Source: Escherichia phage teqskov
Sequence record: NC_054934.1
Direction: 5' to 3' (one strand)
Length of the DNA stretch: 64,000 nt
The notes under the pieces were generated by a model, which was given only the letters and a program-made list of their open reading frames with translations, was not told where the DNA came from and made no database searches. Position 1 is the first letter of the stretch, and every line of letters begins with the position of its first letter. The translations under genes and the position numbers were made by a program. Of the stretch, positions 1 through 19,632 are shown piece by piece.

Positions 1-24
1 ATGCTTTTATGAATAGAGGTTAAT

Positions 25-189
25 ATGAAAACGTTTAAAGAATTTATCAAAGAAGATATGGTCGCTGGAGATTCAGGTGGTAATCCTGAAAATATCTCTA
101 CTGGAACAACGTCAGGCGCTGTAGTAAATAAAGGTCCTGAACAGATTCCTAAAAAGAAAAAAGAGGAATCTAAAGAAAAAGAAGAGTAA
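25..189 (+). CDS. hypothetical small charged protein (54 aa)
   Basis: ATG-initiated 54-codon frame ending 3 nt before the primase start; Lys/Glu-rich C-terminus; below ORF-track cutoff; no recognised motif. Confidence 0.3.
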   Translation: MKTFKEFIKEDMVAGDSGGNPENISTGTTSGAVVNKGPEQIPKKKKEESKEKEE

Positions 190-191
190 AA

Positions 192-1220
192 ATGTCATCG
201 ATACCTTGGATTGATAATGAGTTTGCATATCGTGCATTAGCTCATTTACCTAAATTCACACAAGTAAATAATAGTTCAACTTTTAAATTGCGGTTTAGAT
301 GCCCTGTTTGTGGAGATTCAAAAACCGACCAAAATAAAGCCCGTGGATGGTATTATGGTGATAATAATGAAGGAAATATTCATTGTTATAACTGTAACTA
401 TCATGCACCAATCGGAATATATTTAAAGGAGTTTGAACCTGATTTATATCGTGAGTATATCTTTGAAATAAGAAAAGAAAAAGGTAAAAGTCGTCCAGTA
501 GAAAAACCTAAAGAACTTCCTAAACAACCTGAGAAGAAAATAATTAAATCTCTTCCGTCATGTGTTAGATTAGATAAACTGACGGAAGACCATCCAATTA
601 TAAAATACGTAAAAGCTCGCTGTATTCCAAAGGATAAATGGAAATATCTTTGGTTTACAACTGAATGGCCTAAATTAGTTAATAGCATAGCACCAGGAAC
701 ATATAAAAAGGAAATACCTGAGCCTCGTCTTGTTATTCCAATTTATAATGCTAATGGAAAAGCTGAGTCTTTTCAAGGGCGTGCATTAAAGAAAGATGCT
801 CCCCAAAAATATATCACCATCAAAGCTTATCCTGAGGCAACAAAAATCTATGGTGTTGAACGGGTTAAAGATGGTGATGTATATGTTCTAGAAGGACCTA
901 TAGATTCGCTTTTTATTGAAAATGGTATAGCTATTACGGGTGGTCAATTAGACCTAGAAATTGTTCCATTTAAAGATAGACGTGTATGGGTTTTAGATAA
1001 TGAACCTCGTCACCCTGACACTATTAAACGAATGACTAAATTAGTTGATGCAGGAGAAAGGGTTATGTTTTGGGACAAATCTCCCTGGAAATCAAAAGAT
1101 GTTAATGATATGATTAGAAAGGAAGGTGCAACCCCTGAACAAATTATGGAATATATGAAAAATAATATTGCCCAAGGGTTGATGGCTAAAATGCGGCTAT
1201 CTAAATATGCTAAGATTTAA
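192..1220 (+). CDS. 61: DNA primase gp61
   Basis: 342 aa, same length as T4 gp61; N-terminal Cys4 zinc ribbon (CPVCGDS...CYNCNYH); sequence recognised as T4-type primase. Confidence 0.9.
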   Translation: MSSIPWIDNEFAYRALAHLPKFTQVNNSSTFKLRFRCPVCGDSKTDQNKARGWYYGDNNEGNIHCYNCNYHAPIGIYLKEFEPDLYREYIFEIRKEKGKSRPVEKPKELPKQPEKKIIKSLPSCVRLDKLTEDHPIIKYVKARCIPKDKWKYLWFTTEWPKLVNSIAPGTYKKEIPEPRLVIPIYNANGKAESFQGRALKKDAPQKYITIKAYPEATKIYGVERVKDGDVYVLEGPIDSLFIENGIAITGGQLDLEIVPFKDRRVWVLDNEPRHPDTIKRMTKLVDAGERVMFWDKSPWKSKDVNDMIRKEGATPEQIMEYMKNNIAQGLMAKMRLSKYAKI

Positions 1221-1417
1221 ATTAACCCAACCAAAGCAAATGATAAATCTACGAATGTATCAAGAGTAATTACTGGAATATTAACACCATGAGCAATAGC
1301 AATTGGTGATAAAACAAAATTCCAGAGTAAAATTCCTACCGTAGCAGAAATAGTAAAAGCTATACGTTTTTTATTACCTTTTATGGCATTAACAAGTGCC
1401 ATTAATTTTTGTACCAT
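1217..1417 (-). CDS. hypothetical small membrane protein (66 aa), antisense to the early gene block
   Basis: Minus-strand ORF with strong SD (AAGGAGGA) 3-4 nt before ATG; two hydrophobic segments; sits in a 268-bp gap between 61 and 56. Confidence 0.45.
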   Translation of the reverse strand: MVQKLMALVNAIKGNKKRIAFTISATVGILLWNFVLSPIAIAHGVNIPVITLDTFVDLSFALVGLI

Positions 1418-1488
1418 ATGTCCTCCTTATTGCTTTATATATTTATTGTATAATTAATCTACTAAACCATGAATTGAAAGGAAAAATA

Positions 1489-2007
1489 ATGGCATACTTT
1501 AATGAATGTTCACAACTGATTGAAGGCGCTGATAAAGCTCAAAATGAATACTGGGATATTCTCGGTGATGAAAAAGACCCGCTGCAAGTTATGCTTGATA
1601 TGCAGAAATCTCTTCAGGTTCGTTTAGCTAAAGATAAACCTGAATATAACCGTCATCCTGATGATTTGGCTACCGCAGGCGAAGTTGTTGATTGGTTGCG
1701 TAATCAGAAAGATTATATTGATGATGAATTCCGCGAACTATTGACTTCTCTTGGTGGTATGAGCAATGGTGAAAAAGATGCATCTGCTGTATGGAAGCCT
1801 TGGAAAGCTCAACATGGTGAACGACGTGAAACTCTGATTACTGATTTGTCTCCACAAGACCAGTTGGAAATTAAATTCGAAATGATTGATATTCTTCATT
1901 TCGTTCTGAACATGTTCCAAGGTCTCGGTCTTACGGCTGAAGAAATCTTTAAACTTTATTATTTGAAAAATGCTGAAAACTTCGCTCGTCAAGACCGAGG
2001 TTATTAA
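1489..2007 (+). CDS. 56: dCTP pyrophosphatase gp56 (MazG-like)
   Basis: 172 aa from ATG at 1489 with RBS (T4 gp56 is 171 aa); all-alpha NTP-PPase acidic motifs (DDEFRELL, EIKFEMIDILHF). Confidence 0.85.
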   Translation: MAYFNECSQLIEGADKAQNEYWDILGDEKDPLQVMLDMQKSLQVRLAKDKPEYNRHPDDLATAGEVVDWLRNQKDYIDDEFRELLTSLGGMSNGEKDASAVWKPWKAQHGERRETLITDLSPQDQLEIKFEMIDILHFVLNMFQGLGLTAEEIFKLYYLKNAENFARQDRGY

Positions 2008-2231
2008 TGGCTCGTTTAAATAAACGCCAGCTTAAGAAAGCCCACAAGAAACGTATTGACCAGCTATTTAAAAATTATGACAAAGAGCTCACATACGAGC
2101 TCTTATCTAATCAGCTTCGTGCAGTTGATTGGGGTGTAGAAGAAGGTCTTGATGAAATTTTTGTCAGTAAAGAAGCCTTAAAATTAATTATAGAGCATTC
2201 AAATGAAAATATCCAAAGAAGAATTTATTAG
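2007..2231 (+). CDS. hypothetical protein (74 aa)
   Basis: ATG overlaps gp56 stop (TAATG); basic N-terminus; no recognised motif. Confidence 0.4.
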   Translation: MARLNKRQLKKAHKKRIDQLFKNYDKELTYELLSNQLRAVDWGVEEGLDEIFVSKEALKLIIEHSNENIQRRIY

Positions 2232-2376
2232 ACGACAAAAAGCTTTAATTAATTTACACGAGTGGTATGCCTATCAACTTAAAGTAGATAGCTCTAATAT
2301 AAATGCTGTAATGGCTTTATATAAACAAATTCAAGATGAACACGAATTCCTGGCACAAGTTTTCATTGAAGACTGA
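2203..2376 (+). CDS. hypothetical protein (57 aa), overlaps previous ORF out of frame
   Basis: ATG-initiated frame, 29-nt overlap with 2007..2231; could be a separate gene or the remnant of a frameshifted longer gene. Confidence 0.3.
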   Translation: MKISKEEFIRRQKALINLHEWYAYQLKVDSSNINAVMALYKQIQDEHEFLAQVFIED

Positions 2377-2384
2377 TATAAATA
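2377..2384 (+). promoter_or_regulatory. late promoter (TATAAATA) for soc
   Basis: Exact TATAAATA about 32 nt upstream of soc ATG. Confidence 0.55.
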
Positions 2385-2415
2385 CACCTGTAATTAAACA
2401 ATAAAGGAGTTTATT

Positions 2416-2652
2416 ATGGGTGGTTTCGTTAACATCAAGACCTTTACTCATCCAGCAGGTGAAGGCAAAGAAGTTAAAGGTATGGAAGTTTCTGTAGCAT
2501 TTGATGTATATTCAAATGAACACCGTATTGCAGATTCTCATTATCAAATCTTTCCGTCAGAAAAAGCAGCTTATTCTGATGTAGTTTCCGATGCAGCAAC
2601 TTGGAAAACTAAGAATGCTGCAATGTTTACACCTACAGAAATAGGTGGTTAA
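2416..2652 (+). CDS. soc: small outer capsid protein Soc
   Basis: 78 aa; conserved Soc segments VNIKTF, VAF, HYQ.FPSEKAAYS; preceded by late promoter, followed by terminator. Confidence 0.8.
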   Translation: MGGFVNIKTFTHPAGEGKEVKGMEVSVAFDVYSNEHRIADSHYQIFPSEKAAYSDVVSDAATWKTKNAAMFTPTEIGG

Positions 2653-2659
2653 TAATTCA

Positions 2660-2684
2660 AGGACTCCTTCGGGAGTCCTTTTTC
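2660..2684 (+). terminator. rho-independent terminator (UUCG tetraloop hairpin + T-tract)
   Basis: AGGACTCCTTCGGGAGTCCT followed by TTTTT; identical hairpin recurs at 55518. Confidence 0.75.
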
Positions 2685-2693
2685 ATTTAAATG

Positions 2694-2723
2694 GTTTACT
2701 TTCCAAAATGAGTATGGTATAAT
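2694..2723 (+). promoter_or_regulatory. early promoter
   Basis: GTTTAC -35, 18-bp spacer, TGGTATAAT extended -10. Confidence 0.55.
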
Positions 2724-2749
2724 AGAATTATCTTATAGAGGAGAGCACT

Positions 2750-2956
2750 ATGTTAAATCGCTGGATTAAACCAAATGAAGATTTAGATATTATCATTTCA
2801 CGGCATGTAATGAAGAAATATGAACTACAGCCATGGTCTACAGAAGTTGTTGTGCATTCATTTATGATGTACGCAGATGGTTCTGTCGAATTTAATGCAG
2901 AGATTCGATATGATTATGGCGAAAAGCAAGTCGAATTCAAAAGAGGCTTTTTGTAA
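2750..2956 (+). CDS. hypothetical protein (68 aa)
   Basis: ATG with AGAGGAGAG RBS; no recognised motif. Confidence 0.45.
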   Translation: MLNRWIKPNEDLDIIISRHVMKKYELQPWSTEVVVHSFMMYADGSVEFNAEIRYDYGEKQVEFKRGFL

Positions 2957-3297
2957 TGTTTATCTTTAATTGGTTTAAAAGTTTCTTTACGGATTTTTTC
3001 TCTACAACTCCCGGAGAAGGTGTAGTTCCTATTTCAAATGACTACCTTCCTTTAACTGTAGTTGAATATGTTTATATGGGAGATGGAACAGTAGAAGCAG
3101 TCACTATGACTTATGAAGAAGCCCAAGAATATTATAAAAATCCTTGGCGCTGGTCAACACCTACTACATCATCTAATGCACAGAAAACACAGTCTAGTTC
3201 TGATTCATATGATACAAATGTTCCTGTTTATGTATGGACGGGCGATTCATGTGGAAGTTCTTGTGATTCTAGTTGTTCATCTACATCTTGTGATTGA
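2956..3297 (+). CDS. hypothetical protein with Cys/Ser-rich C-terminal tail (113 aa)
   Basis: Hydrophobic N-terminus; C-terminal [18 protein letters not shown] low-complexity Cys repeat. Confidence 0.5.
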
Positions 3298-3305
3298 GGA
3301 AAATT

Positions 3306-3791
3306 ATGGAAGCGATTTTGTTTGAAATGTATATTAGCAGTAATAGTATGTCATTTGCTAAAGACGTTCCAATTACCGTAGCAGTAATGATTGATAAGGG
3401 TTATTGTGACCCAATGTATCTCGTAGAAAATTTCGTTTCAATGCCAGTTCCAGAAGATGCTGAAATAAAACTTAAAAAGATTGGTATTATTGAAACTGTA
3501 CCAAATATTCCGTTTAGAGCAATTGAAGCATTTACTAAATCCGAATACATTAATGTTAGCGCAGAACAATATAATGATAAACCTATATCTTTCTATTCGT
3601 ATGATTCAGTATATAGTTGGAAAATAGATAAAGGAAATAAATTTATAATTGTGAGTGAAGATGCTTTATCATACTTTATTTCTTCTATATGGAATAGTTT
3701 ACATCCAAATTTGCTAAAAATTCATGAATTTGATGATGCTCCTACTGTTGTTTTAGGTAAAACAGATGAAAGTTCTGAAGAAAATGCTTGA
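3306..3791 (+). CDS. hypothetical protein (161 aa)
   Basis: ATG at 3306 with GAGGA RBS (ORF-track start 3294 is TTG); same length as T4 Mrh but sequence identity not verifiable. Confidence 0.5.
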
Positions 3792-3969
3792 ATGGTTCAG
3801 TAGACCAAACTCAATGTATATTGACGATGGTTGGGTTGAACAGGCAAATAAAGAAATGCAGAACGAATCGGAAGAATGGATGAAATCTATGATTAAAGCT
3901 GAGCAAGAAAAGAAATTAGAGCGCTCAGCTCTTAAATTAATGAGAGATATTTACGGTGATAAATCATGA
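3784..3969 (+). CDS. hypothetical protein (about 61 aa)
   Basis: ATG overlapping stop of upstream gene; charged, helical-looking sequence. Confidence 0.4.
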
Positions 3970-4130
3970 GCAAAGATATGACGTTAGAAGAGGCCAAAGC
4001 AAAAGCAAATGAAGCAATGGATTTGCTTCTTAAAATTGGTAGTAAAATGATGGAAGAAAATGAGAAATACATTCAGGAAAACAAAATTCCTGACGGTCCA
4101 TTAGTAGGCAAAAGGAAATCACATGATTGA
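3966..4130 (+). CDS. hypothetical protein (54 aa)
   Basis: ATGA start/stop overlap with previous ORF; below ORF-track cutoff. Confidence 0.35.
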
Positions 4131-4593
4131 AGTAGCAAAACTATATTCAATAGAATTTATGTCTAAAGAAGGTAAATCAGTAAATACACTTGATAAAAAA
4201 TGCTCATTAATTATTCCTTTAGCAGAAAATCCGGATTTTTTAATTAAAGATATAAAAGAAAGAAAATATCCAGAAAATGTTATTCTAATTATAAAGCATA
4301 CTGAAGATATTTTGCAGAATACTGATTCACCGTTTTCTTCTTCCGAAGCTTTAACTATTAAAGGCTATAAAAGAGCTCATGAATATGGTCTTTTTGACAT
4401 GTTTGAAGACGATAAAGTTAAATTAGCGAGTCAACCTTCTAAAAGTAAAACATTCATTATTGAAGATATTAAAGATATAAATGCATTTGTTAAGATGGTC
4501 TGGGCTCATTTTGATGTTGGACTACGCTGGAGAATGTCCGAAGAAGAAAGAAAGATTATTGAAGCTAATCGTCAATTTGGTTTTTATCGCTAG
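4123..4593 (+). CDS. hypothetical protein (156 aa)
   Basis: ATG with AAAGGAAA RBS; no recognised motif. Confidence 0.5.
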
Positions 4594-4601
4594 GAATTAG
4601 T

Positions 4602-4784
4602 ATGGATTTATTTGAGATGTTAGAAGATAATCATTCTACGAATATCCAGAATGATTCTAGTGATTATAAGAAAGAATACCGTATAGTATTACAGAATTAT
4701 GGAATTGAAGCCCCAGATGCTCTTCTAGAAGAACTAGCTTCATACCATCTTGACCCTCCGCCCTGGGCTCCCTGGGCAAAATAA
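4602..4784 (+). CDS. hypothetical acidic protein (60 aa)
   Basis: ATG with RBS; acidic, Pro/Trp-rich C-terminus. Confidence 0.4.
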   Translation: MDLFEMLEDNHSTNIQNDSSDYKKEYRIVLQNYGIEAPDALLEELASYHLDPPPWAPWAK

Positions 4785-4795
4785 TTCAAAAAGTT

Positions 4796-4825
4796 GTTTA
4801 CTTTCCTTTCTAACGATGATATGAT
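4796..4825 (+). promoter_or_regulatory. early promoter
   Basis: GTTTAC -35, 18-bp spacer, TATGAT -10; inverted repeat ATGATAGC/GCTATCAT links the -10 to the modB start codon. Confidence 0.5.
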
Positions 4826-4851
4826 AGCTTCTGAAGTATACGGAGGCTATC

Positions 4852-5475
4852 ATGATTATTAATCTTGCAGATGTTGAACAGTTATCTATAAAAGCTGAAA
4901 GCGTCGATTTTCAATATGATATGTATAAAAAGGTCTGTGAAAAATTTACTGACTTTGAACAGTCAATTCTTTGGCAATGTATGGAAGCCAAAAAGAATGA
5001 AGCTCTTCATAGGCAGTTGAATAAAATCGTTAAAAAGCATTTAACTAAATCACCTTATCAGTTATATCGTGGTATATCAAAATCAACAGAAGAACTTATT
5101 AAAGATTTACAAGTTGGAGAAGTGTTTTCAACGAACAGGGTAGATTCATTTACTACTAGTTTGCTCACAGCATGTTCTTTTTCTTACGCTGAATATTTTA
5201 CTAAAATAATACTTCGCTTAAAAACTAATAAAGCTTTTAATTATTCTGACCATATCAGCGATATTATACTTTCTTCTCCTAATACTGAGTTTAAGTACAC
5301 GTATGAAGATACTGATGGATTAGATTCAGAGCGTACTGATAACTTAATGATGATTGTGCGTGAACAGGAATGGATGATTCCAATTGGAAAGTATAGAATA
5401 ACTTCTATTTCAAAAGAAAAATTACACGATTCATTTGGAACATTTAAAGTTTATGATATTGAGGTAGTTGAATGA
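4852..5475 (+). CDS. modB: ADP-ribosyltransferase ModB
   Basis: 207 aa (T4 ModB length); ART R-S-E triad (YRG, FTTSL, EQEWMIP); position upstream of modA. Confidence 0.7.
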   Translation: MIINLADVEQLSIKAESVDFQYDMYKKVCEKFTDFEQSILWQCMEAKKNEALHRQLNKIVKKHLTKSPYQLYRGISKSTEELIKDLQVGEVFSTNRVDSFTTSLLTACSFSYAEYFTKIILRLKTNKAFNYSDHISDIILSSPNTEFKYTYEDTDGLDSERTDNLMMIVREQEWMIPIGKYRITSISKEKLHDSFGTFKVYDIEVVE

Positions 5476-6074
5476 AATACTCAGTAATGCAACTAAAAGA
5501 TTTTAAAATAAAATCAATGGATGCATCGGTGCGTGCTTCTATTCGTGAAGAATTACTTTCTGAAGGGTTTAATTTATCTGAAATTGAACTTTTAATTCAT
5601 TGTATTACTAATAAACCAGATGACCATACTTGGTTAAATGAAATAATCAAATCTCGTTTGGAACCAAACGATAAACCTCTTTGGAGAGGTGTTCCAGCTG
5701 AGACTAAACAAGTATTAAATCAAGGAATTGATATTATTACATTTGATAAAGTCGTATCAGCTTCATATGATAAAAATATAGCTCTACATTTTGCTTCTGG
5801 TTTAGAGTATAACACACAAGTTATTTTTGAATTCAAAGCTCCTATGGTATTCAATTTCCAGGAGTATGCTATAAAAGCTCTACGCTGTAAAGAATACAAT
5901 CCAAACTTTAAGTTTCCGGATAGCCATCGTTATCGTAATATGGAATTAGTTTCAGATGAACAAGAAGTAATGATACCAGCTGGAAGTGTATTTAGAATTG
6001 CAGATAGATATGAATACAAAAAGTATTCAACATACACTATCTATACTCTTGATTTTGAAGGATTTAATCTATAA
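5472..6074 (+). CDS. modA: ADP-ribosyltransferase ModA
   Basis: 200 aa (T4 ModA length); ART triad (WRG, SAS, EQEVMIP); tandem with modB. Confidence 0.7.
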   Translation: MKYSVMQLKDFKIKSMDASVRASIREELLSEGFNLSEIELLIHCITNKPDDHTWLNEIIKSRLEPNDKPLWRGVPAETKQVLNQGIDIITFDKVVSASYDKNIALHFASGLEYNTQVIFEFKAPMVFNFQEYAIKALRCKEYNPNFKFPDSHRYRNMELVSDEQEVMIPAGSVFRIADRYEYKKYSTYTIYTLDFEGFNL

Positions 6075-6130
6075 TGGAAGGACTTAGATTCATTATACCA
6101 TGAAAGTTTTAAAGCATTTTTCATAAAGTT

Positions 6131-6160
6131 GTTTACAAGTTAAAGTAAAAATGTTATAGT
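6131..6160 (+). promoter_or_regulatory. early promoter
   Basis: GTTTAC -35, 18-bp spacer, TATAGT -10. Confidence 0.5.
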
Positions 6161-6196
6161 ATAAGTAGTTAACCGTCCGTAAGATGTGAGAAAAAT

Positions 6197-6943
6197 ATGA
6201 AGCTGTCTAATAACCAAATTCGTAAAATTAAACGTCGTCTAGAGCATACCCAGGCATCTGCAAAAAGACGTTCTAAAGATTTTAACTTAGACTTCAATTA
6301 CATTAAGAACATTTTAGATCAGAAAGTTTGTGCTTACTCAGGAGAACCTTTTGATAATCGTGTTGAAGGAGAGAAATTATCATTAGAACGTTTTGATAAT
6401 AACGTTGGATACATTAAAGGGAATGTTATTGCAGTAAAGAAAAAGTATAATACATTTCGTTCTGATTATACTTTAGAAGAGTTGATTGAAAAGCGTGATT
6501 TATTTGCTTTGCGAATTGGTCGTTCATCTGCGAAAAAAGTTCATAAACTAAATTTAGATGAAAAGAAATGGGCTAAAATCAAAAAGACTTATAATCAAAT
6601 TAAAGCTATACAGAAAAAACGTGAAAACCGAATTGAACACATTTCTCAGCTTTCTAAATCAAAACAGACCTCTGACATTAAGCTAAGAATTATAGCACTT
6701 AAAGCTCGTATTGATGGTTCTCGCATAGCAGAAGGCGCTGAAGTTGTTAAACTGAACGTTCTTCTTAAAGGCTCGGATTGGAAAATTGTGAAAAAGTTGT
6801 CAGAAGCAGAAATGCAATATGATATGTGTGATAAAATTATTCAAGGTGTAGAGCGGTATCAAAACTTGTCTTTTATTGATAAACTTAAACTGAAAAGAGG
6901 ATACCCGCTAAATTGTTCAATTTTTAAACTTATCCGAGGATAA
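6197..6943 (+). CDS. Srd-position protein (248 aa) with degenerate HNH-like N-terminal motif
   Basis: Size and position (between modA and dda) match T4 srd; N-terminus CAYSGEPF...LSLERFDNNVGYIKGNVIAV resembles an HNH core lacking the catalytic His/Cys. Confidence 0.5.
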   Translation: MKLSNNQIRKIKRRLEHTQASAKRRSKDFNLDFNYIKNILDQKVCAYSGEPFDNRVEGEKLSLERFDNNVGYIKGNVIAVKKKYNTFRSDYTLEELIEKRDLFALRIGRSSAKKVHKLNLDEKKWAKIKKTYNQIKAIQKKRENRIEHISQLSKSKQTSDIKLRIIALKARIDGSRIAEGAEVVKLNVLLKGSDWKIVKKLSEAEMQYDMCDKIIQGVERYQNLSFIDKLKLKRGYPLNCSIFKLIRG

Positions 6944-6944
6944 T

Positions 6945-7256
6945 ATGGTTTATGTATATGCGATAGTTTACCGAGACAAAGACGGATTTACGGCGCCAGT
7001 TCCGCTTGATGAACATCGTCCTGCTGTATTTTTTGAATGGAATATTGCTGATAAAGTATTTACTACTCTTAAAGAGCAGTATCGATTAGCTTTAGGTAAG
7101 GGAATTCCAAGATTAGTTGAGACTCCACGCAAGTTTTGGTTTAATAAAATAGAAGTTAAACATGTTAAGCCTGACGTAGACACACAAAGATTATATCAGC
7201 GAATTTTAGATACTGGGCGTATTGTTAGTATTCCAATTGCAGGGACTTTCCGATGA
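6945..7256 (+). CDS. hypothetical protein (103 aa)
   Basis: ATG with GAGGA RBS; immediately upstream of dda. Confidence 0.5.
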   Translation: MVYVYAIVYRDKDGFTAPVPLDEHRPAVFFEWNIADKVFTTLKEQYRLALGKGIPRLVETPRKFWFNKIEVKHVKPDVDTQRLYQRILDTGRIVSIPIAGTFR

Positions 7257-8572
7257 CATTTGATGATTTGACCGAAGGCCAGAAAAATGCCTTTAACATT
7301 GTTATGAAGGCTATTAAAGAAAAGAAACATCATGTAACTATTAATGGACCTGCTGGTACCGGTAAGACTACTCTTACTAAATTCATCATTGAAGCTTTAA
7401 TATCTACGGGTGAAACTGGTATTATTTTAGCAGCTCCTACGCATGCGGCTAAAAAGATTCTTTCAAAACTATCAGGGAAAGAAGCGAGTACTATTCATAG
7501 TATTCTTAAAATTAACCCAGTAACATATGAAGAAAACGTTCTTTTTGAACAAAAAGAAGTACCAGATTTAGCTAAATGCAGGGTATTAATCTGCGACGAA
7601 GTGTCAATGTATGATAGAAAGCTATTTAAAATTCTGCTTTCAACTATCCCGCCATGGTGTACCATAATTGGAATAGGGGATAATAAGCAAATTAGACCTG
7701 TTGACCCAGGAGAAAACACTGCTTATATCAGTCCATTCTTTACACATAAAGATTTTTATCAGTGTGAACTTACTGAAGTTAAACGCAGTAATGCTCCTAT
7801 TATTGATGTAGCTACTGACGTTCGTAACGGTAAGTGGATTTATGATAAAGTTGTTGACGGGCATGGAGTACGTGGATTTACTGGTGATACCGCTTTACGC
7901 GATTTTATGGTAAATTATTTTTCAATCGTCAAATCTTTAGATGATTTGTTTGAAAATCGCGTAATGGCATTTACGAATAAATCTGTTGACAAGTTAAATA
8001 GCATTATTCGTAAAAAGATTTTTGAAACTGATAAAGATTTTATTGTCGGTGAAATTATTGTAATGCAGGAACCATTAATTAAAACATATAAAATTGATGG
8101 AAAGCCTGTATCAGAAATTATTTTTAATAACGGACAATTAGTTCGTATTATAGAAGCAGAGTATACATCAACGTTTGTTAAAGCCCGTGGTGTTCCTGGG
8201 GAATATCTAATTCGTCATTGGGATTTAACAGTAGAAACTTACGGCGATGATGAATATTATCGTGAAAAGATTAAAATAATTTCATCTGATGAAGAGCTAT
8301 ATAAGTTTAACCTATTTTTAGGTAAAACTGCAGAAACTTATAAAAATTGGAACAAAGGCGGAAAAGCTCCGTGGAGTGATTTTTGGGATGCTAAATCACA
8401 GTTTAGTAAAGTGAAAGCACTTCCTGCATCAACATTCCATAAAGCTCAGGGTATGTCTGTAGACCGTGCTTTCATTTATACGCCTTGTATTCATTATGCA
8501 GATGCTGAATTGGCCCAACAACTTCTTTATGTTGGTGTTACCCGTGGTCGTTATGATGTGTTTTATGTGTGA
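7253..8572 (+). CDS. dda: Dda DNA helicase (SF1B)
   Basis: 439 aa; Walker A GPAGTGKT, DEVSM Walker B; sequence recognised as T4 Dda. Confidence 0.92.
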   Translation: MTFDDLTEGQKNAFNIVMKAIKEKKHHVTINGPAGTGKTTLTKFIIEALISTGETGIILAAPTHAAKKILSKLSGKEASTIHSILKINPVTYEENVLFEQKEVPDLAKCRVLICDEVSMYDRKLFKILLSTIPPWCTIIGIGDNKQIRPVDPGENTAYISPFFTHKDFYQCELTEVKRSNAPIIDVATDVRNGKWIYDKVVDGHGVRGFTGDTALRDFMVNYFSIVKSLDDLFENRVMAFTNKSVDKLNSIIRKKIFETDKDFIVGEIIVMQEPLIKTYKIDGKPVSEIIFNNGQLVRIIEAEYTSTFVKARGVPGEYLIRHWDLTVETYGDDEYYREKIKIISSDEELYKFNLFLGKTAETYKNWNKGGKAPWSDFWDAKSQFSKVKALPASTFHKAQGMSVDRAFIYTPCIHYADAELAQQLLYVGVTRGRYDVFYV

Positions 8573-8578
8573 GGTTAT

Positions 8579-8839
8579 ATGATTAACATCAATTCAAAAT
8601 ATTTAAATCGTCTAATAGATGGTATAAGGAAGCATACTAATAAGCAAGATAATCTTAATGTTATGGTAACAGGAGCTGAGCTCCTTCATAAGCTTTATCT
8701 TATAAGTGATACTATATTAGCAATTAAACGAATTGAAAAACAATCATATCACAGTAATACAGATACGGTAATTACACTAGATGAAAGTGTCTGTAAATTA
8801 CTAATTAAATTTGAGGAAGCTATTCGTGGAAATAACTAA
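8579..8839 (+). CDS. hypothetical protein (86 aa)
   Basis: ATG with GAGG RBS; first of three similar-sized small ORFs. Confidence 0.45.
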   Translation: MININSKYLNRLIDGIRKHTNKQDNLNVMVTGAELLHKLYLISDTILAIKRIEKQSYHSNTDTVITLDESVCKLLIKFEEAIRGNN

Positions 8840-9071
8840 AGATCAGTTTTATCTTCTTCAGGATAAAGTTAGCGAAATTTATGAAATTGCTCATGGTAAA
8901 AATCGTGAAACTGTAAAAATTGAATCTAGTAAGTTGATGCTTCAATTAGAAGAAATTGAACGAGATTTAATTGCGTTAGAATTCTTTTGTGGTGAAGTGA
9001 AAACTGTTACAATCAATGATTACGTTTTAGGCGAAATTAGCTATCTTTATGAGGCGATTATTAATGATTGA
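8826..9071 (+). CDS. hypothetical protein (about 81 aa, GTG start)
   Basis: No ATG available; GTG with GAGGAAG RBS; paralogous to next ORF (LEEIERDL / YVLGEI). Confidence 0.4.
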   Translation: MEITKDQFYLLQDKVSEIYEIAHGKNRETVKIESSKLMLQLEEIERDLIALEFFCGEVKTVTINDYVLGEISYLYEAIIND

Positions 9072-9306
9072 ATTAAGTTGGTACCAGTTTAAATCTCTTA
9101 TGGCAAATGTTAAAGCTGTCATTCAAGAAAATTCAGGACCTGATAATGTTACTATTCGCGAAAAAGCTTTAAAGATAGTATACAGTCTTGAAGAGATACA
9201 AAAAGATATTGAATCTATGGCAAAATTTATTGATGAGCCTATTAATAAAGTTTATATTCAAGACTATACTGTAGGCCAAATTCGTGATTTAGCGAGGAAA
9301 ATTTAA
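9064..9306 (+). CDS. hypothetical protein (about 80 aa)
   Basis: Paralogue of previous ORF (LEEIQKDI / YTVGQI); ATG with GAGG RBS. Confidence 0.4.
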   Translation: MIELSWYQFKSLMANVKAVIQENSGPDNVTIREKALKIVYSLEEIQKDIESMAKFIDEPINKVYIQDYTVGQIRDLARKI

Positions 9307-9989
9307 TGTTTGATTTTATTATAGATTTTGAAACAATGGGAAGCGGTGAAAAAGCAGCTGTTATTGATTTGGCTGTAATTGCTTTTGACCCTAACCCAGA
9401 AGTAGTTGAATCATTCGATGAACTAGTTTCACGTGGCATTAAAATCAAATTTGATTTAAAAAGCCAAAAAGGACATCGTCTTTTTACTAAAAGCACTATC
9501 GAATGGTGGAAAAATCAGTCTCCTGAAGCTCGAAAAAATATTGCACCATCCGATGAAGATGTAAGCACCATTGATGGTATTGCAAAATTCAACGATTACA
9601 TCAATGCACATAATATCGATCCTTGGAAATCTCAAGGCTGGTGCCGTGGAATGTCGTTTGATTTTCCAATTTTAGTCGATCTCATTCGCGATATTCAACG
9701 TCTTAATGGCGTTTCCGAGAATGAGCTTGATACGTTTAAGTTAGAACCATGTAAATTCTGGAATCAGCGTGATATTCGTACCAGAATTGAAGCACTTCTG
9801 CTTGTTCGTGATATGACCACGTGTCCTCTTCCAAAGGGAACTTTAGATGGATTCGTTGCACATGATTCTATTCATGACTGTGCGAAAGACATCCTGATGA
9901 TGAAGTATGCTTTGCGATACGCTATGGGTCTTGAAGATGCTCCGTCAGAGGAAGATTGCGATCCTCTGTCTCTTCCAACAAAACGATAA
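9306..9989 (+). CDS. dexA: exonuclease A DexA (DEDD-type 3'-5' exonuclease)
   Basis: 227 aa (T4 DexA length); DFETMG and HDSIHDCAKD exonuclease motifs. Confidence 0.85.
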   Translation: MFDFIIDFETMGSGEKAAVIDLAVIAFDPNPEVVESFDELVSRGIKIKFDLKSQKGHRLFTKSTIEWWKNQSPEARKNIAPSDEDVSTIDGIAKFNDYINAHNIDPWKSQGWCRGMSFDFPILVDLIRDIQRLNGVSENELDTFKLEPCKFWNQRDIRTRIEALLLVRDMTTCPLPKGTLDGFVAHDSIHDCAKDILMMKYALRYAMGLEDAPSEEDCDPLSLPTKR

Positions 9990-9995
9990 AAAGTT

Positions 9996-10027
9996 GTTTA
10001 CTTCCTCGGTTAGTTGTGGTATTATAA
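9996..10027 (+). promoter_or_regulatory. early promoter
   Basis: GTTTAC -35, 18-bp spacer, TGGTATTATAA -10 region. Confidence 0.55.
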
Positions 10028-10052
10028 CACCATAGCTACTGAGGATAATAAA

Positions 10053-10565
10053 ATGAAAATTTATCGTGTTGAATCATCGTTTAGCGCATTAAATGATGAT
10101 AGTGGTATAGTCAAAATTAGGCAAGAGTTATGCGTTCAATCAACTCCTTATCGTGGATTTGATTCTATGAAAACTCGAACTTGGCTAAAATTTTGCGGTA
10201 TTAATTCATCGTCATTTCATCATCATAGCGATAATTATGAAAGCCATGAAAGTATTCCTATTCCACACGATGATAAGTTATTAGTTGAAAATGCTAATGA
10301 TGTTATTAAAACTAAATGGAATAAAGATTATTCACGAATTGAAAATTATATTCCATTGTGGTTTATTGCATTATATCATTTTGCTTTCGCTAGCGAATAT
10401 GATATGATGAGATGGTTCACTCGAGAAGAGCGTGAAGACTTAAAAGAACGTGGAATGTACATTGCGATTTATGAAGTGCCAGATGACCAAGTTATCATTG
10501 GCGGACATCAAGTAATGTTCCGCAAATCGCATGCCGAATTAAAAGGCTTTATTACCTTAGATTAA
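10053..10565 (+). CDS. hypothetical early protein (170 aa), in the position of T4 motB
   Basis: ATG at 10053 with GAGGA RBS directly after early promoter; identity with MotB not verifiable. Confidence 0.5.
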   Translation: MKIYRVESSFSALNDDSGIVKIRQELCVQSTPYRGFDSMKTRTWLKFCGINSSSFHHHSDNYESHESIPIPHDDKLLVENANDVIKTKWNKDYSRIENYIPLWFIALYHFAFASEYDMMRWFTREEREDLKERGMYIAIYEVPDDQVIIGGHQVMFRKSHAELKGFITLD

Positions 10566-10575
10566 AGAGAAAATT

Positions 10576-11079
10576 ATGATTAAAAATAATGCTGTTTATC
10601 AATTGAAAAAATTTGATGAAATTAAGAATTTTCCGGTACTGTCTAATACATCTCATAATAAGTTTTGTGAACTTCTTGCTTTAACTGGCGGATATCCTTT
10701 TACTGTTATTAGTGTTAATAGCGGAATTCTTATCGGCATGGTGTATATTGAAATTAGAAACTATTATGGAATGGTGTCATCGCTTATTATTTATGAAAAA
10801 GATTTTAGTCTATTGACAGAAATTGAAAAAGAAGAACAGGAAAAATTCCATATTGATATGGATTTAGTTTCTATGTATGTGGCACCAGTTGAAAAAATTG
10901 AAGACCCGACTGATTTGTTGTGTAAGGCAGTTTATATTCGTCGTCCATTCGCGAATCCGATTGGCGGTTGGGTAACTGACCAGTGGATTGAAGATGGCGT
11001 TGAACTTCTTAATGTAGTTCATGCTGGAGAGTACTCCGTAGTTCCTCGCAGCGCAGTGATTAATGTTCGTGTAAGCTAG
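10576..11079 (+). CDS. hypothetical protein, paralogue A (167 aa)
   Basis: C-terminal module (WVTDQWIEDGVELLNVV) shared with next gene. Confidence 0.55.
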   Translation: MIKNNAVYQLKKFDEIKNFPVLSNTSHNKFCELLALTGGYPFTVISVNSGILIGMVYIEIRNYYGMVSSLIIYEKDFSLLTEIEKEEQEKFHIDMDLVSMYVAPVEKIEDPTDLLCKAVYIRRPFANPIGGWVTDQWIEDGVELLNVVHAGEYSVVPRSAVINVRVS

Positions 11080-11108
11080 TTTACAAACTCTTGGGACCAG
11101 AGTATAAT
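11079..11108 (+). promoter_or_regulatory. early promoter
   Basis: GTTTAC -35 overlapping upstream stop, 18-bp spacer, TATAAT; -10 flanked by inverted repeat GGACCA/TGGTCC. Confidence 0.6.
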
Positions 11109-11152
11109 GGTCCTGCGGAGTATAAAATCTTTTTAACAAGTGAGAGATAATT

Positions 11153-11644
11153 ATGAATATTAATATCGGTGAAATTGCTCGTGTATCTGATAAATCCCGT
11201 TCTAAGGCAGCAGGAAAATTGGTTGAAGTTGTAAGCATTCAGCTTAAACATGGTGTTAAAGATGAAGATTCTGAAGTAAAAGTGCGTATCATTCCTAAAG
11301 ATGGAATGTCTAAACCTCAGTTTGGTTATGTTCGATGGAAATTTCTTGAGCCTGCGTTTTTGAAAGCTGTTCCCGCTAAAGGAATTGAAACGATTGATAC
11401 TTCGCATGTAGGTGTAGATTTTAAGTGGAAACTCGGTCAAGCTATCAAGTTCGTTGCTCCTTATGAGTTTGAATTTACTGAAGGTGAGGAAGGGGTTGTT
11501 AACCGTACTCGTGCTATGTGCGCATACATTACCGATCAGTGGGTAGAAGACGGTGTTAAGCTGTACAACACGGTATTTTTAGGAACATACAAAGTCATTC
11601 CTGAAAGTTGGATTAAACACTACAGCAAAGCTCGCTATGCATAA
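11153..11644 (+). CDS. hypothetical protein, paralogue B (163 aa)
   Basis: C-terminal module (YITDQWVEDGVKLYNTV) shared with 10576..11079; different N-terminal domain. Confidence 0.55.
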   Translation: MNINIGEIARVSDKSRSKAAGKLVEVVSIQLKHGVKDEDSEVKVRIIPKDGMSKPQFGYVRWKFLEPAFLKAVPAKGIETIDTSHVGVDFKWKLGQAIKFVAPYEFEFTEGEEGVVNRTRAMCAYITDQWVEDGVKLYNTVFLGTYKVIPESWIKHYSKARYA

Positions 11645-11664
11645 AGTTTAAATTTTTTTCATAA

Positions 11665-11705
11665 AACTATATACATCAGTAGTTGATTATGGTACTATAT
11701 CAATA
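11665..11705 (+). promoter_or_regulatory. probable early promoter (-10 region only)
   Basis: TGGTACTATATCAA -10/start region conserved with other promoters here; no clear GTTTAC -35. Confidence 0.4.
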
Positions 11706-11741
11706 TCAACTACTGATACAGAAAACAACTTGGAGAATAAA

Positions 11742-12011
11742 ATGGAAAACTTAATTATCATCGAGCAATCTTTTAACGATTATGGTATGGCTTACGGTTA
11801 TCGTGCGATAATGGAAGATTCTCGTGGATGTGTTATCGATATTGCTGAATGTAAAGATTTACTGCAGCTTTTGAAGATTGTTCGTAAAAATTGGGATTGT
11901 GAAAATATTAAAGTTCGAGTTGTTACAGAAGAAGAAACTGTTTTTCATGATGTAAAATTCGCTAAAGGTGCTGCTACTCTTCTGAAACGTATCGCTCCAA
12001 TGTTTAATTAA
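11742..12011 (+). CDS. hypothetical protein (89 aa)
   Basis: ATG at 11742 with GGAGAA RBS (ORF-track start 11730 is TTG). Confidence 0.5.
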   Translation: MENLIIIEQSFNDYGMAYGYRAIMEDSRGCVIDIAECKDLLQLLKIVRKNWDCENIKVRVVTEEETVFHDVKFAKGAATLLKRIAPMFN

Positions 12012-12024
12012 TGAGGAAATTGTA

Positions 12025-12240
12025 ATGAAACGTAAAATTGTTCAGAATTGCACTAATGACGAATTTGAAGATGTATTATTTGATCCAGATTTGGTAGTGG
12101 TTCAAAAGGAACATACCGTTAAGTTTACTCACTTGACTTCGGTTTATGTGTATGAGAAAGTCGGTGATAAACAACCAATTTATGGTGTATTTCGTGAAAT
12201 TACTGAAGATGGAACAACTTACTGGAAGGAAATTTATTAA
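12025..12240 (+). CDS. hypothetical protein (71 aa), same size and position as T4 Cef
   Basis: ATG with GAGGAAA RBS; identity inferred only from length and synteny. Confidence 0.5.
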
Positions 12241-12665
12241 TGGCTATTAAATTTGAAGTTAATAAATGGTATCAATTTAAAAATAAACAAGCTCAAGAAA
12301 AATTTATTAAATATCATACTGAAAACGGAATTTATGCACGACGTTTAGGTATGGAACCTTTTAGAGTTACAGATATTGACTATCTTGGTCGTCCTACTAA
12401 ACTTGTGACATCTAGTGGAAAATTGGCGTTATCTTCTGGTAAAGATATTTTGGATGAAGATTTTATCTGGCTTTCAGCGAGCGAAGCTGAGTTCTTTAAT
12501 GAAGTGGAAAATCCATACCAGGCAGCCGAAGAGCAAGAGCAGGAAGAGAAAGAGCAAGAACAGATAGAAGATTTCATAGAATTCCCGGTCATGAAAGTTA
12601 CTATTGAAAATAATGAACAGGCATGGTCCTTGTATCAGATGTTGAAAGCACATTTTAAGGAATAA
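12240..12665 (+). CDS. hypothetical protein (141 aa) with acidic [11 protein letters not shown] tract, same size and position as T4 GoF
   Basis: TAATG overlap with upstream gene; identity inferred only from length and synteny. Confidence 0.5.
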
Positions 12666-12667
12666 TT

Positions 12668-12844
12668 ATGCCAATGTATGATTATAAATGCCAATCCGAA
12701 GATTGCGGGCATGAATATGAAAAAATTAAAAAGATTTCTGAACGAGAAAATGATGTTTGCCCTAAATGTCATCGTCTGTCTACTCGTCGGCCTTCTGCTC
12801 CTAAGCATGTGAATGGTGGATTTTACGACTTACTTAAGGGATAA
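12668..12844 (+). CDS. FmdB-type zinc-ribbon protein (58 aa)
   Basis: MPMYDYKCQSEDCGHEYE...CPKCH matches the FmdB/Zn-ribbon signature (MPxYxYxCxxCG...CPxC). Confidence 0.6.
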   Translation: MPMYDYKCQSEDCGHEYEKIKKISERENDVCPKCHRLSTRRPSAPKHVNGGFYDLLKG

Positions 12845-12846
12845 TT

Positions 12847-13218
12847 ATGTTTAAAATCGGTAAGAAATATCGTATTCGCGAAGGTGAAGAACAGAAATAT
12901 CTACTTTCTGCTATTTATAGGAATGGTTCTATTAGTAATGTAATATCTACAAGCGAATTTATCGTTGAAGATATGAAAGGTCATAATGTTACAATGATTA
13001 GTACAGCATCTGGAAATGATGGAAAAATTCTTCATAGTTGTCAGAGTAATGTTCTAATTTATGATGAAGAATTTGACTTCTTCAAAGAAGTTTCCGAAGA
13101 TTTTGATTTTGAATGCACTATCACTATGAAATCTGGCGATCCTCTTTCTTTTACAGTTAAAGATGAAAGAAGCCGTTTAAGAATTATTAGTCTTCTTCAA
13201 GCCATTAAATTTAAGTGA
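12847..13218 (+). CDS. hypothetical protein (123 aa)
   Basis: ATG with RBS; no recognised motif. Confidence 0.5.
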   Translation: MFKIGKKYRIREGEEQKYLLSAIYRNGSISNVISTSEFIVEDMKGHNVTMISTASGNDGKILHSCQSNVLIYDEEFDFFKEVSEDFDFECTITMKSGDPLSFTVKDERSRLRIISLLQAIKFK

Positions 13219-13223
13219 AAACT

Positions 13224-13484
13224 ATGAAATATATTAATCGTTCTATCGCAGCATTAGTATTAGCAGTGTCTTTAGTAGGATGTACTGATGCTGATAATGC
13301 AACCAAAGTTTTGTCTTCAAGTGGTTTTACTAATATTGAAATCACTGGATATAACTGGTTCGGTTGCTCTGAAAATGATTTCCAACATACTGGATTTCGT
13401 GCTATTGGACCTACCGGGCAGAAAGTAGAAGGAACAGTATGTTCTGGTCTATTCTTCAAAGATTCGACTATCCGTTTTAAATAA
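13224..13484 (+). CDS. putative lipoprotein (86 aa)
   Basis: Signal peptide with lipobox LVGC (MKYINRSIAALVLAVSLVGC); ATG at 13224 (ORF-track start is GTG). Confidence 0.55.
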   Translation: MKYINRSIAALVLAVSLVGCTDADNATKVLSSSGFTNIEITGYNWFGCSENDFQHTGFRAIGPTGQKVEGTVCSGLFFKDSTIRFK

Positions 13485-13502
13485 AAGGCCTTCGGGCCTT
13501 TA
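13485..13502 (+). terminator. hairpin terminator (UUCG loop), weak T-tract
   Basis: AGGCCTTCGGGCCT immediately after stop. Confidence 0.5.
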
Positions 13503-13526
13503 GCTTTATGATTACCGGAGTATAAT
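13502..13526 (+). promoter_or_regulatory. candidate middle promoter (MotA box + -10) for gene 39
   Basis: aGCTTTA about 18-20 bp upstream of TATAAT; no -35 element. Confidence 0.4.
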
Positions 13527-13553
13527 ATTCCCGAAACCAAACGAGGATAAGTG

Positions 13554-15371
13554 ATGATTAAGAATGAAATTAAAATTCTGAGCGATATTGAACATATCAA
13601 AAAGCGTAGCGGCATGTATATTGGCTCTTCTGCTAATGAAATGCATGAGCGCTTTCTGTTTGGTAAATGGGAAAGTGTTCAGTATGTACCTGGTCTTGTT
13701 AAGCTTATTGATGAAATTATCGATAACTCAGTAGATGAAGGTATTCGTACTAAGTTTAAATTCGCAAATAAAATTAATGTTACTATTAAAAACAATCAAG
13801 TAACAGTTGAAGATAACGGTCGCGGTATTCCACAAGCGATGGTTAAAACACCTACCGGTGAAGAAATTCCTGGTCCTGTTGCCGCATGGACTATTCCAAA
13901 AGCAGGTGGTAACTTCGGTGATGATAAAGAACGCGTCACTGGCGGTATGAACGGTGTTGGTTCTAGTTTGACAAACATTTTTTCTGTGATGTTTGTCGGT
14001 GAAACTGGCGATGGTCAAAATAATATTGTAGTTCGTTGCTCAAATGGCATGGAAAATAAATCATGGGAAGATATTCCTGGAAAATGGAAAGGAACCCGTG
14101 TTACTTTCATTCCTGATTTTATGTCATTTGAAACTAATGAGCTGTCCCAAGTTTATCTTGACATTACATTAGATCGTCTCCAGACACTTGCTGTTGTTTA
14201 TCCTGATATTCAATTTACCTTTAATGGTAAAAAGGTTCAGGGCAATTTTAAGAAATATGCACGCCAATATGATGAGCATGCTATCGTTCAAGAACAAGAA
14301 AATTGTTCTATTGCGGTTGGTCGTTCACCGGATGGATTTCGTCAATTAACTTATGTGAATAACATCCACACTAAGAATGGTGGCCATCACATTGACTGTG
14401 TTATGGATGATATTTGTGAAGACCTTATTCCACAAATCAAACGTAAGTTCAAAATTGATGTAACTAAAGCACGTGTCAAAGAATGTTTGACTATCGTTAT
14501 GTTTGTTCGTGATATGAAAAACATGCGATTTGATTCTCAAACTAAAGAGCGTTTGACTTCTCCATTTGGTGAAATCCGTAGTCATATTCAACTTGATGCT
14601 AAAAAGATTTCACGCGCTATTCTAAATAATGAAGCAATTTTGATGCCAATTATTGAAGCAGCATTAGCTCGTAAATTGGCAGCAGAAAAAGCAGCAGAAA
14701 CTAAAGCAGCTAAAAAGGCTTCTAAAGCTAAGGTTCATAAACATATCAAAGCGAATCTTTGTGGTAAAGATGCTGATACTACACTATTCTTAACTGAGGG
14801 CGATTCTGCTATCGGATATCTTATTGATGTTCGTGATAAAGAACTTCATGGTGGTTATCCATTGCGCGGTAAAGTTCTCAACAGTTGGGGTATGTCTTAT
14901 GCAGATATGCTTAAAAACAAAGAATTATTTGATATTTGCGCAATCACTGGATTAGTTCTTGGTGAAAAAGCTGAAAACTTGAATTATCATAATATTGCTA
15001 TTATGACTGATGCTGACCATGATGGTCTAGGAAGCATTTATCCTTCTCTGCTCGGGTTTTTTAGTAATTGGCCAGAATTGTTTGAGCAAGGACGAATTCG
15101 CTTTGTCAAAACTCCTGTAATCATCGCTCAGGTCGGTAAAAAACAAGAATGGTTTTACACAGTCGCTGAATATGAGAGTGCCAAAGATGCTCTACCTAAA
15201 CATAGTATCCGTTATATTAAGGGACTTGGCTCTTTGGAAAAATCTGAATATCGTGAGATGATTCAAAATCCAGTATATGATGTTGTTAAACTTCCTGAGA
15301 ACTGGAAAGAGCTTTTTGAAATGCTCATGGGAGATAATGCTGACCTTCGTAAAGAATGGATGAGCCAGTAG
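13554..15371 (+). CDS. 39: DNA topoisomerase II large (ATPase, GyrB-like) subunit, fused gp39+gp60 form
   Basis: 605 aa uninterrupted ORF from ATG 13554; GHKL ATPase N-terminus; T4 splits this into 39 (516 aa) and 60. Confidence 0.9.
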   Translation: MIKNEIKILSDIEHIKKRSGMYIGSSANEMHERFLFGKWESVQYVPGLVKLIDEIIDNSVDEGIRTKFKFANKINVTIKNNQVTVEDNGRGIPQAMVKTPTGEEIPGPVAAWTIPKAGGNFGDDKERVTGGMNGVGSSLTNIFSVMFVGETGDGQNNIVVRCSNGMENKSWEDIPGKWKGTRVTFIPDFMSFETNELSQVYLDITLDRLQTLAVVYPDIQFTFNGKKVQGNFKKYARQYDEHAIVQEQENCSIAVGRSPDGFRQLTYVNNIHTKNGGHHIDCVMDDICEDLIPQIKRKFKIDVTKARVKECLTIVMFVRDMKNMRFDSQTKERLTSPFGEIRSHIQLDAKKISRAILNNEAILMPIIEAALARKLAAEKAAETKAAKKASKAKVHKHIKANLCGKDADTTLFLTEGDSAIGYLIDVRDKELHGGYPLRGKVLNSWGMSYADMLKNKELFDICAITGLVLGEKAENLNYHNIAIMTDADHDGLGSIYPSLLGFFSNWPELFEQGRIRFVKTPVIIAQVGKKQEWFYTVAEYESAKDALPKHSIRYIKGLGSLEKSEYREMIQNPVYDVVKLPENWKELFEMLMGDNADLRKEWMSQ

Positions 15372-15400
15372 TTTACTTTACCACAAGGATGTGGTATAAT
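15371..15400 (+). promoter_or_regulatory. early promoter
   Basis: GTTTAC -35, 18-bp spacer, TGTGGTATAAT extended -10. Confidence 0.6.
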
Positions 15401-15425
15401 TAATTGGGCAAATGAGGATATTGAA

Positions 15426-15629
15426 ATGAAATCATATAGAGTAAATTTAGAACTTTTTGATAAAGCAGTTCATCGAGAATATAGAATCATTCAACGCTTT
15501 TTCGATATGGGAGAAGCCGAAGAATTTAAAAACCGCTTTAAAGATATTAGAGATAAAATTCAATCCGACACTGCAACTAAAGATGAACTACTAGAAGTTG
15601 CTGAAGTTATTAAGCGTAATATGAATTAA
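15426..15629 (+). CDS. hypothetical protein (67 aa)
   Basis: ATG with GAGGA RBS; charged helical sequence. Confidence 0.5.
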
Positions 15630-15639
15630 TGAGGAAATT

Positions 15640-17817: not shown

Positions 17818-17828
17818 TAAGGAAAATT

Positions 17829-18767: not shown

Positions 18768-18785
18768 GGGCTTCGGCCCTTATCA
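18766..18785 (+). terminator. hairpin terminator (UUCG loop), weak T-tract
   Basis: AAGGGCTTCGGCCCTT overlapping rIIB stop. Confidence 0.5.
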
Positions 18786-18799
18786 TATTAAGGAAAATT

Positions 18800-18994: not shown

Positions 18995-18997
18995 AAT

Positions 18998-19020
18998 AAG
19001 GGCTTCGGCCCTTTTGTTTT
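18998..19020 (+). terminator. rho-independent terminator
   Basis: AAGGGCTTCGGCCCTT followed by TTTTGTTTT. Confidence 0.7.
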
Positions 19021-19058
19021 AAGAGAAATTATGATTCCGACATAAAAGGAAAGTTTAA

Positions 19059-19616: not shown

Positions 19617-19632
19617 AAAATTTCACAAAACA

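Follow-up and report, generated by a model that had tools for sequence, protein, structure and literature searches.

A conserved small membrane-protein gene opposite the early strand of T-even phages, with a late-type promoter box and a possible remote relationship to holins

A gene for a 66-residue membrane protein lies on the minus strand between the DNA primase gene (gene 61) and the dCTPase gene (gene 56) of Escherichia phage teqskov. We analyzed a stretch of 64,000 nucleotides of this phage (NC_054934.1), called the window below, which comes from a Tequatrovirus and whose first 2.4 kb are 98.8% identical to phage TadeuszReichstein. The open reading frame (ORF) spans 1417..1217 on the minus strand, its product is MVQKLMALVNAIKGNKKRIAFTISATVGILLWNFVLSPIAIAHGVNIPVITLDTFVDLSFALVGLI, and it is a genuine protein-coding gene under purifying selection. 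It is the ortholog of dam.1, RB32ORF030w, and RB69ORF029w. Guided by a late-type promoter signal and a distant profile relationship, we tentatively read the product, with somewhat less than even confidence, as a late, holin-like accessory membrane protein.

The strongest evidence for the gene is its conservation. A tblastn search found the protein in 845 phage records, with coverage of at least 80% and an intact ORF in 692 of them. About 500 of these records matched at Tequatrovirus level with 80 to 100% identity, and about 340 belonged to other genera with 30 to 58% identity. Within Tequatrovirus, pairwise ratios of nonsynonymous to synonymous substitution rates (dN/dS) were mostly 0.1 to 0.3, and the replacements were conservative. 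Across seven Tevenvirinae genera, at a mean amino acid identity of 37%, nucleotide identity was 0.49, 0.67, and 0.37 at the first, second, and third codon positions, and the DNA alignment showed third-position drift at the codons for the invariant Trp-Asn, Pro, and Gly residues. A Shine-Dalgarno sequence of the GGAG/GGAGG type was present at the equivalent site in all nine phages compared. The position is fixed as well: all genera inspected have the ORF pointing toward primase, its 3′ end meeting that of gene 61 and mostly overlapping it by 4 bp, as seen in Tequatrovirus (T4, T2, and RB32), Mosigvirus (mobillu), Dhakavirus (NC-G), Kanagawavirus (ZX14), Jiaodavirus (KPV15), Gelderlandvirus (S16), and Moonvirus (Moon). 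An earlier note on this DNA, made from the sequence alone, had proposed a translatable small membrane-protein gene converging on primase, to be abandoned if the ORF were not conserved in related phages. The homologs settle that point in favor of the gene, and the intact frame, the Shine-Dalgarno sequence, and the coding signature bear the proposal out.

The family has a limited distribution. No reverse ORF follows gene 61 in Krischvirus JSE, Slopekvirus KP27, Acinetobacter phage 133, or Aeromonas phage ZHF, where gene 61 directly abuts gene 56 or another plus-strand gene. Because these more distant T4-like phages are without the reverse ORF, the 66-residue gene is a feature of the enterobacterial Tevenvirinae. 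An HMMER profile search against 1.84 billion representative proteins yielded no more than 17 clusters, and the family is therefore small. One 61-residue member from a Logan assembly (P0051) carried many substitutions toward V, F, and I, which looks like damaged or converted reads and not like a natural variant; it was excluded from the family profiles.

The coding signature has to be weighed together with the regulatory DNA that the ORF overlaps. A terminator-like hairpin with a T-run lies 3′ of gene 61 on the plus strand at 1383..1412, within ORF codons 6 to 12 (−8.9 kcal/mol, z = −2.8), and looks like the terminator for gene 61 transcripts. Given this hairpin, a plus-strand promoter in the same region, and the lack of an annotation for the ORF in both T4 reference records, the ORF might be taken for no gene at all, being a by-product of regulatory DNA such as the gene 61 terminator or the promoters of gene 56 or dam. 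However, the hairpin exists in Tequatrovirus sequences only, yet the pattern WN[FY]..P....G...P...L[DE] persists at 30% identity, the frame is intact across hundreds of genomes, and the codon-position signature is that of coding DNA. We regard this explanation as extremely improbable and already close to refuted.

An antisense role of the transcript was considered in the same context. The roughly 600 nt that follow the ORF yielded no minus-strand terminator, and a late transcript would therefore continue in antisense orientation through the 3′ portion of gene 61. T4 is also known to transcribe both strands of some sites at different times (PMC2988020). On this view, the main product would be an antisense RNA made late and directed at the 3′ portion of the primase mRNA, with the peptide being secondary. 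However, conservation at the amino acid level with third-position drift between genera, the low dN/dS, and the Shine-Dalgarno sequence conserved in every genus demonstrate selection on the protein, and we consider an RNA as the main product very unlikely.

The time of expression is suggested by a T4-type late-promoter box. T4 late genes, whose transcription follows DNA replication and depends on gp55, gp33, and gp45, have on their own strand an upstream box of the TATAAATA type that occupies −13 to −6, and the ORF is preceded by AATAAATA at 1447..1440 on the minus strand, the variant with A at −13, which lies 22 nt ahead of the ATG. Among 50 T4 late promoters, 32 have the perfect TATAAATA, and A at −13, found in nine, is the commonest deviation (PMC2988020); in T4-like phages the T at −13 is poorly conserved (PMC1524935). 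The sequence NATAAATA is rare in the window, with 16 copies on both strands, and several of these precede long minus-strand ORFs in the late tail-fiber block. Another of the 16, a perfect TATAAATA at 2377-2384 on the plus strand, 31 nt before the start codon of the late gene soc, served as a positive control within the window.

Late-type boxes also occur 20 to 30 nt ahead of the ATG in Tequatrovirus, Mosigvirus, Kanagawavirus, and Jiaodavirus relatives, as GATAAATA in T4 and T2, AATAAATA in mobillu, the perfect TATAAATA in ZX14, and both CATAAATA and GATAAATA in KPV15. The sequence around the box is otherwise unconserved among relatives. Box and Shine-Dalgarno sequence are kept despite a different upstream neighbor, which is gene 56 here, dam in T4, and another ORF in T2. 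Because the box is rare, recurs in relatives, and persists together with the Shine-Dalgarno sequence behind changing neighbors, we infer late transcription of the ORF by gp55-RNA polymerase, starting near 1434 and giving a leader of 17 nt. A scan for sigma-70 promoters detected none on the minus strand upstream of the ORF. The A/T-rich promoter-like sequence reported there by the earlier note thus corresponds to a promoter-type element, although of the T4 late type, AATAAATA, and not a sigma-70 promoter.

The predicted protein begins with a short helix (residues 1-13), followed by a basic segment at residues 13-18, in which K13, K16, K17, and R18 precede the hydrophobic stretches. A clear predicted transmembrane helix spans residues 19-42, a loop with conserved His/Gly and Pro occupies residues 43-51, and a second hydrophobic helix with conserved acidic residues covers residues 52-66. 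Kyte-Doolittle hydropathy, taken over 19 residues, is highest for windows beginning at residue 23 (score 1.87) and at residue 47 (1.74), and AlphaFold2 placed helices at residues 2-12, 16-42, and 52-62 with a mean pLDDT of 78, in agreement with the two hydrophobic segments described before. W32, N33, P38, G44, P48, and G64 are invariant or nearly so throughout the family. Judged by hydropathy and the AlphaFold2 model, the product is small and has one or more predicted transmembrane helices, as in the holin class; the charged hydrophilic C-terminal tail of that class is missing, as the protein ends in ...FALVGLI with no charge after D57. The start of the protein, Met1-Val-Gln-Lys-Leu-Met6 (window 1400-1417, minus strand), with Lys4 between the two methionines, recalls a dual-start holin/antiholin arrangement; it was given no weight, as the second Met is confined to Tequatrovirus.

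Direct searches with the protein were largely uninformative. Scans against Pfam, NCBIfam, and PADLOC gave nothing relevant, word-based protein searches returned close relatives only, and Foldseek against viral models recovered family members only. Against solved structures there were chance matches only, to acetylcholine-receptor M4 helices at E values of at least 0.04.

Profile comparisons, in turn, point to the holins of family PF11351 (GTA_holin_3TM). Four distant members of the 66-residue family match the same C-terminal part of PF11351 at sub-threshold E values of 0.03 to 0.1 (best 13.6 to 15.3 bits), and one distant member matches the phrog_3427 'holin' profile at E 5e-4. In return, phage C72C1 encodes a true PF11351 holin (E 2.4e-16 to PF11351), and this protein matches phrog_2024, the profile of the 66-residue family, at E 6e-4. 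When profiles were compared with hhalign, the family aligned with 65 C72C1-like holins at a probability of 94.3% (E 1e-7, 56 columns) and with nine diverse PF11351 holins at 93.6% (E 2e-7, 53 columns). The native score was 43.3 versus 10.6 ± 2-3 (maximum 19) for holin alignments with shuffled columns and 13.1 for a reversed alignment. The alignment, which covers holin positions of about 55 to 113 only, brings together the transmembrane helix, the Pro loop, and the last hydrophobic helix, and the invariant P and G of the two families fall into register. PF11351 genes are themselves often found beside endolysin or other cell-wall-active genes, which counts in favor of the holin link. TeaA of Vibrio phage ICP1 is a PF11351 family member and a holin tested in expression experiments (PMC7182436). 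Small size and presumed late expression are further features that the 66-residue protein shares with PF11351 and phrog_3427 proteins. Another holin of the PF11351 family is rcc00555 of RcGTA. From these comparisons, the two hydrophobic helices are inferred to share ancestry with the final two membrane helices of PF11351 holins, and the 66-residue protein is probably a remote, truncated relative of PF11351 and not a member. The suggestion of a toxin-like function in the earlier note comes closest to this holin-like profile relationship, which is itself a prediction from sequence. A separate 'holin-like protein' beside the primase gene of cyanophage S-SCSM1 proved unrelated to the 66-residue family.

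Several findings weigh against a late, holin-like function. The PF11351 gathering threshold of 24.8 bits was not reached by any family member, and the window protein had no Pfam match even at E values up to 10. Tested as a single sequence against a PF11351-type HMM, it ranked second of 910 segments with E 0.2, which is not significant; what supports the holin link is thus the comparison of profiles with each other, over short membrane segments. The full architecture of the family is also lacking: PF11351 holins are about 120 to 150 residues long, and the 66-residue protein is without their N-terminal 60 or so residues, which hold the N-terminal helix and the long charged helix, and without the basic C-terminal tail (MRSYEK...). 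Of eight newly fetched PF11351 genes, five adjoin an annotated cell-wall-active gene, whereas the 66-residue ORF has primase and dCTPase as neighbors and no endolysin gene beside it. Nor do the distant homologs outside the T4-like phages lie in an evident lysis cassette. Three of them (P0061, P0063, and P0079) sit in E. coli-associated phage-like contigs of 27 to 78 kb, among tail genes, at 6001-6213 (L013), 6001-6210 (L014), and 6001-6219 (L015); in L013 and L015 the member shares 8 nt with the end of an endonuclease VII gene, and in L014 it overlaps a 41-residue ORF just downstream of such a gene. The idea of a lysis cassette around these homologs was dropped, the neighbors being endonuclease VII and tail-like proteins. 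On the basis of the single-sequence result, the missing ends, the lack of an endolysin neighbor, and the setting of the distant homologs, we treat the protein as a remote relative. The promoter evidence has exceptions too, as S16 (Gelderlandvirus) and Moon (Moonvirus) carry TATTAAATA at this place instead, and Dhakavirus NC-G shows no late box upstream of its ORF copy. We found no literature giving a transcript, a peptide, or a phenotype for the ORF, including work on unannotated T4 small proteins and ribosome profiling. Finally, T-even phages have a complete lysis set (T, E, the spanins, RI, and RIII), and the host phage already has an unrelated holin, T.

Under the late, holin-like reading, gp55-RNA polymerase would use the AATAAATA box, 22 nt ahead of the ATG, to transcribe the gene, and by analogy with the PF11351 holins the product would insert into the inner membrane as a hairpin with both termini in the cytoplasm (N-in/C-in). 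There it may act late in infection as a holin-like accessory, either by depolarizing the membrane in the manner of a pinholin or by tuning the time at which the main holin T fires. A depolarizer or lysis-timing modulator is the most economical guess and the least certain step of the explanation. T4 t mutants do not lyse, and therefore the 66-residue protein is not the main holin. As a resemblance only, class II holins or pinholins such as S68 of phage 21 are similar in length (about 66 to 70 residues), in their two hydrophobic helices, and in a likely N-in/C-in hairpin; unlike them, the 66-residue protein has no charged C-terminal tail. If it is indeed a late holin-related protein, T-even phages may control lysis or the membrane at one more level, for which it is a concrete candidate that can easily be tested.

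A stronger claim would be that T-even phages, T4 included, encode, besides T, another holin-type protein that has been overlooked. It would be a derivative of the GTA/TeaA family reduced to a minimum of two helices, made late and aiding depolarization, lysis timing, or lysis inhibition together with T. We regard this version as doubtful; if true, a lysis system that is among the best studied would gain an unrecognized component. It is likewise rather unlikely, in our estimate, that the product acts late and in the membrane but outside lysis, for example in assembly steps located at the inner membrane, or as an anchor or chaperone for some other late protein. The late-type promoter would suit such a role, as would the distant members in non-T4 contigs, which are translationally coupled to the endonuclease VII gene among tail genes, and the already full T-even lysis set. 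However, profile, Foldseek, and structure searches revealed no similarity to a known assembly factor, and the sole family-level similarity is to holins. Even if not related to holins, the ORF would still represent a conserved 66-residue late gene at a fixed position that is worth adding to the T4 annotation.

The ORF is already catalogued as a hypothetical protein, under the names RB32ORF030w, RB69ORF029w, dam.1, and phrog_2024. The match to phrog_2024 (RB69ORF029w-like, function unknown) is full length, with residues 2-66 aligned to profile positions 1-65 of 65 at E 1.4e-30. RB32 and T2 annotate the ORF as RB32ORF030w ("similar to RB69ORF029w"), and phage T4T annotates it as gene dam.1. These entries share family and genomic position, the Tequatrovirus copies are 89 to 100% identical, and no structural difference separates them from the window protein. 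A search for papers on RB69ORF029w, RB32ORF030w, or dam.1 returned none. T4 itself has an intact copy at 17,738-17,938, between dam and gene 61, and the reference records AF158101.6 and NC_000866.4 do not annotate it; several further T4 records likewise lack the annotation. As far as we could find, what is new is this gap in the T4 reference annotation despite deep conservation, together with the late-promoter assignment and the remote holin relationship. T4 serves as the reference in work on lysis, on lysis inhibition, and on late transcription in phages, and since the ORF is absent from AF158101 and NC_000866, studies relying on those records would not include it. Among database labels, the family member of phage OE5505 (A0A482MZV5, P0025) is called 'Holin' in UniProt, and that of Klebsiella phage SAKp28 (P0073) is called 'DNA packaging ATPase', which looks like a mislabel.

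On the other side of the ORF lies a variable slot. When the region of window positions 1221-1488 was compared among relatives, the part between the ORF promoter and gene 56 varied and the small ORF remained constant: the slot holds nothing in this phage and RB32, which is likewise without dam in the 61-56 gap; T4 has dam there, T2 has both dam and a further ORF, and ZX14 and Moon have other small ORFs. The T4 gene order is 41, dmd, 61.4, sp, 61.2, 61.1, 61, the 66-residue ORF on the opposite strand, dam, and 56. The earlier note had placed dmd, sp, and dam in the T4 interval between genes 61 and 56; this is correct for dam, which is absent from the gap here, whereas dmd and sp lie between 41 and 61 in T4. 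No homolog of dam, segF, sp, dmd, or T2_31 was detected within the 64-kb window. Because dmd and sp stand upstream of gene 61 in T4 and the window starts at 61.1, their presence in this phage cannot be judged from the window. That the ORF takes the place of dmd, sp, or dam was rejected, since T4 and T2 have the ORF and dam, plus dmd and sp upstream of gene 61.

This setting bears on a role in superinfection exclusion, immunity, or anti-defense, as the earlier note had suggested. In relatives, the slot bordering the gene is occupied by dam or further accessory ORFs, and the small T4 membrane proteins Imm and Sp do such jobs; like the 66-residue protein, they are small envelope-associated proteins of T-even phages. 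However, Imm and Sp are encoded on the early strand and expressed early, and the ORF is set apart from them by its opposite strand and its late-type box. The promoter scan found no early or middle promoter on the ORF strand, the late box being the only signal, whereas known exclusion genes act early. In addition, five family members gave no PADLOC match at E values up to 0.1, in a library that models bacterial defense and not phage counter-defense. An early exclusion or anti-defense function is accordingly not favored, and we judge a membrane factor of this kind unlikely.

The immediate neighbors are gene 61 at 192..1220 on the plus strand, toward which the ORF converges, and gene 56 at 1489..2007 on the plus strand, from which it diverges. 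Between the end of gene 61 at 1220 and the start of gene 56 at 1489 there is a 268-bp gap, and the stop codons of the ORF and of primase overlap at 1217-1220. The Shine-Dalgarno sequence AAGGAGGA lies at 1428..1421 on the minus strand, 3 nt ahead of the ATG. Within 1..26000, the plus strand carries every other plausible gene; the late tail-fiber genes at 26 to 36 kb share the minus strand with the ORF. The gap, the minus-strand ORF within it, the strong Shine-Dalgarno sequence, and the uniform plus-strand orientation of the remaining early genes had all been described correctly in the earlier note.

The upstream region also appears to serve gene 56. The consensus of MotA-dependent T4 middle promoters provides the basis for reading a middle-promoter-like element for gene 56 from the sequence at 1431..1454 on the plus strand, composed of a MotA box (TGCTTTA, 1431-1437), an 11-nt spacer, and TATAAT at 1449-1454. 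As the late box falls inside the MotA-type spacer, the promoter elements of gene 56 and the ORF overlap back to back, and two temporal programs, middle for gene 56 and late for the ORF, would share 24 bp. The Shine-Dalgarno sequence at 1421-1428 is separate from both the MotA box and the −10 hexamer at 1449-1454, so the possibility that it merely reflects the gene 56 promoter can be set aside.

Finally, late-type boxes on the minus strand also occur elsewhere in the plus-strand early block, at 16968..16961, 12919..12912, and 10795..10788 (AATAAATA, TATAAATA, and CATAAATA). No ORF of at least 40 residues stands behind these three boxes, which could be a source of late antisense RNAs.

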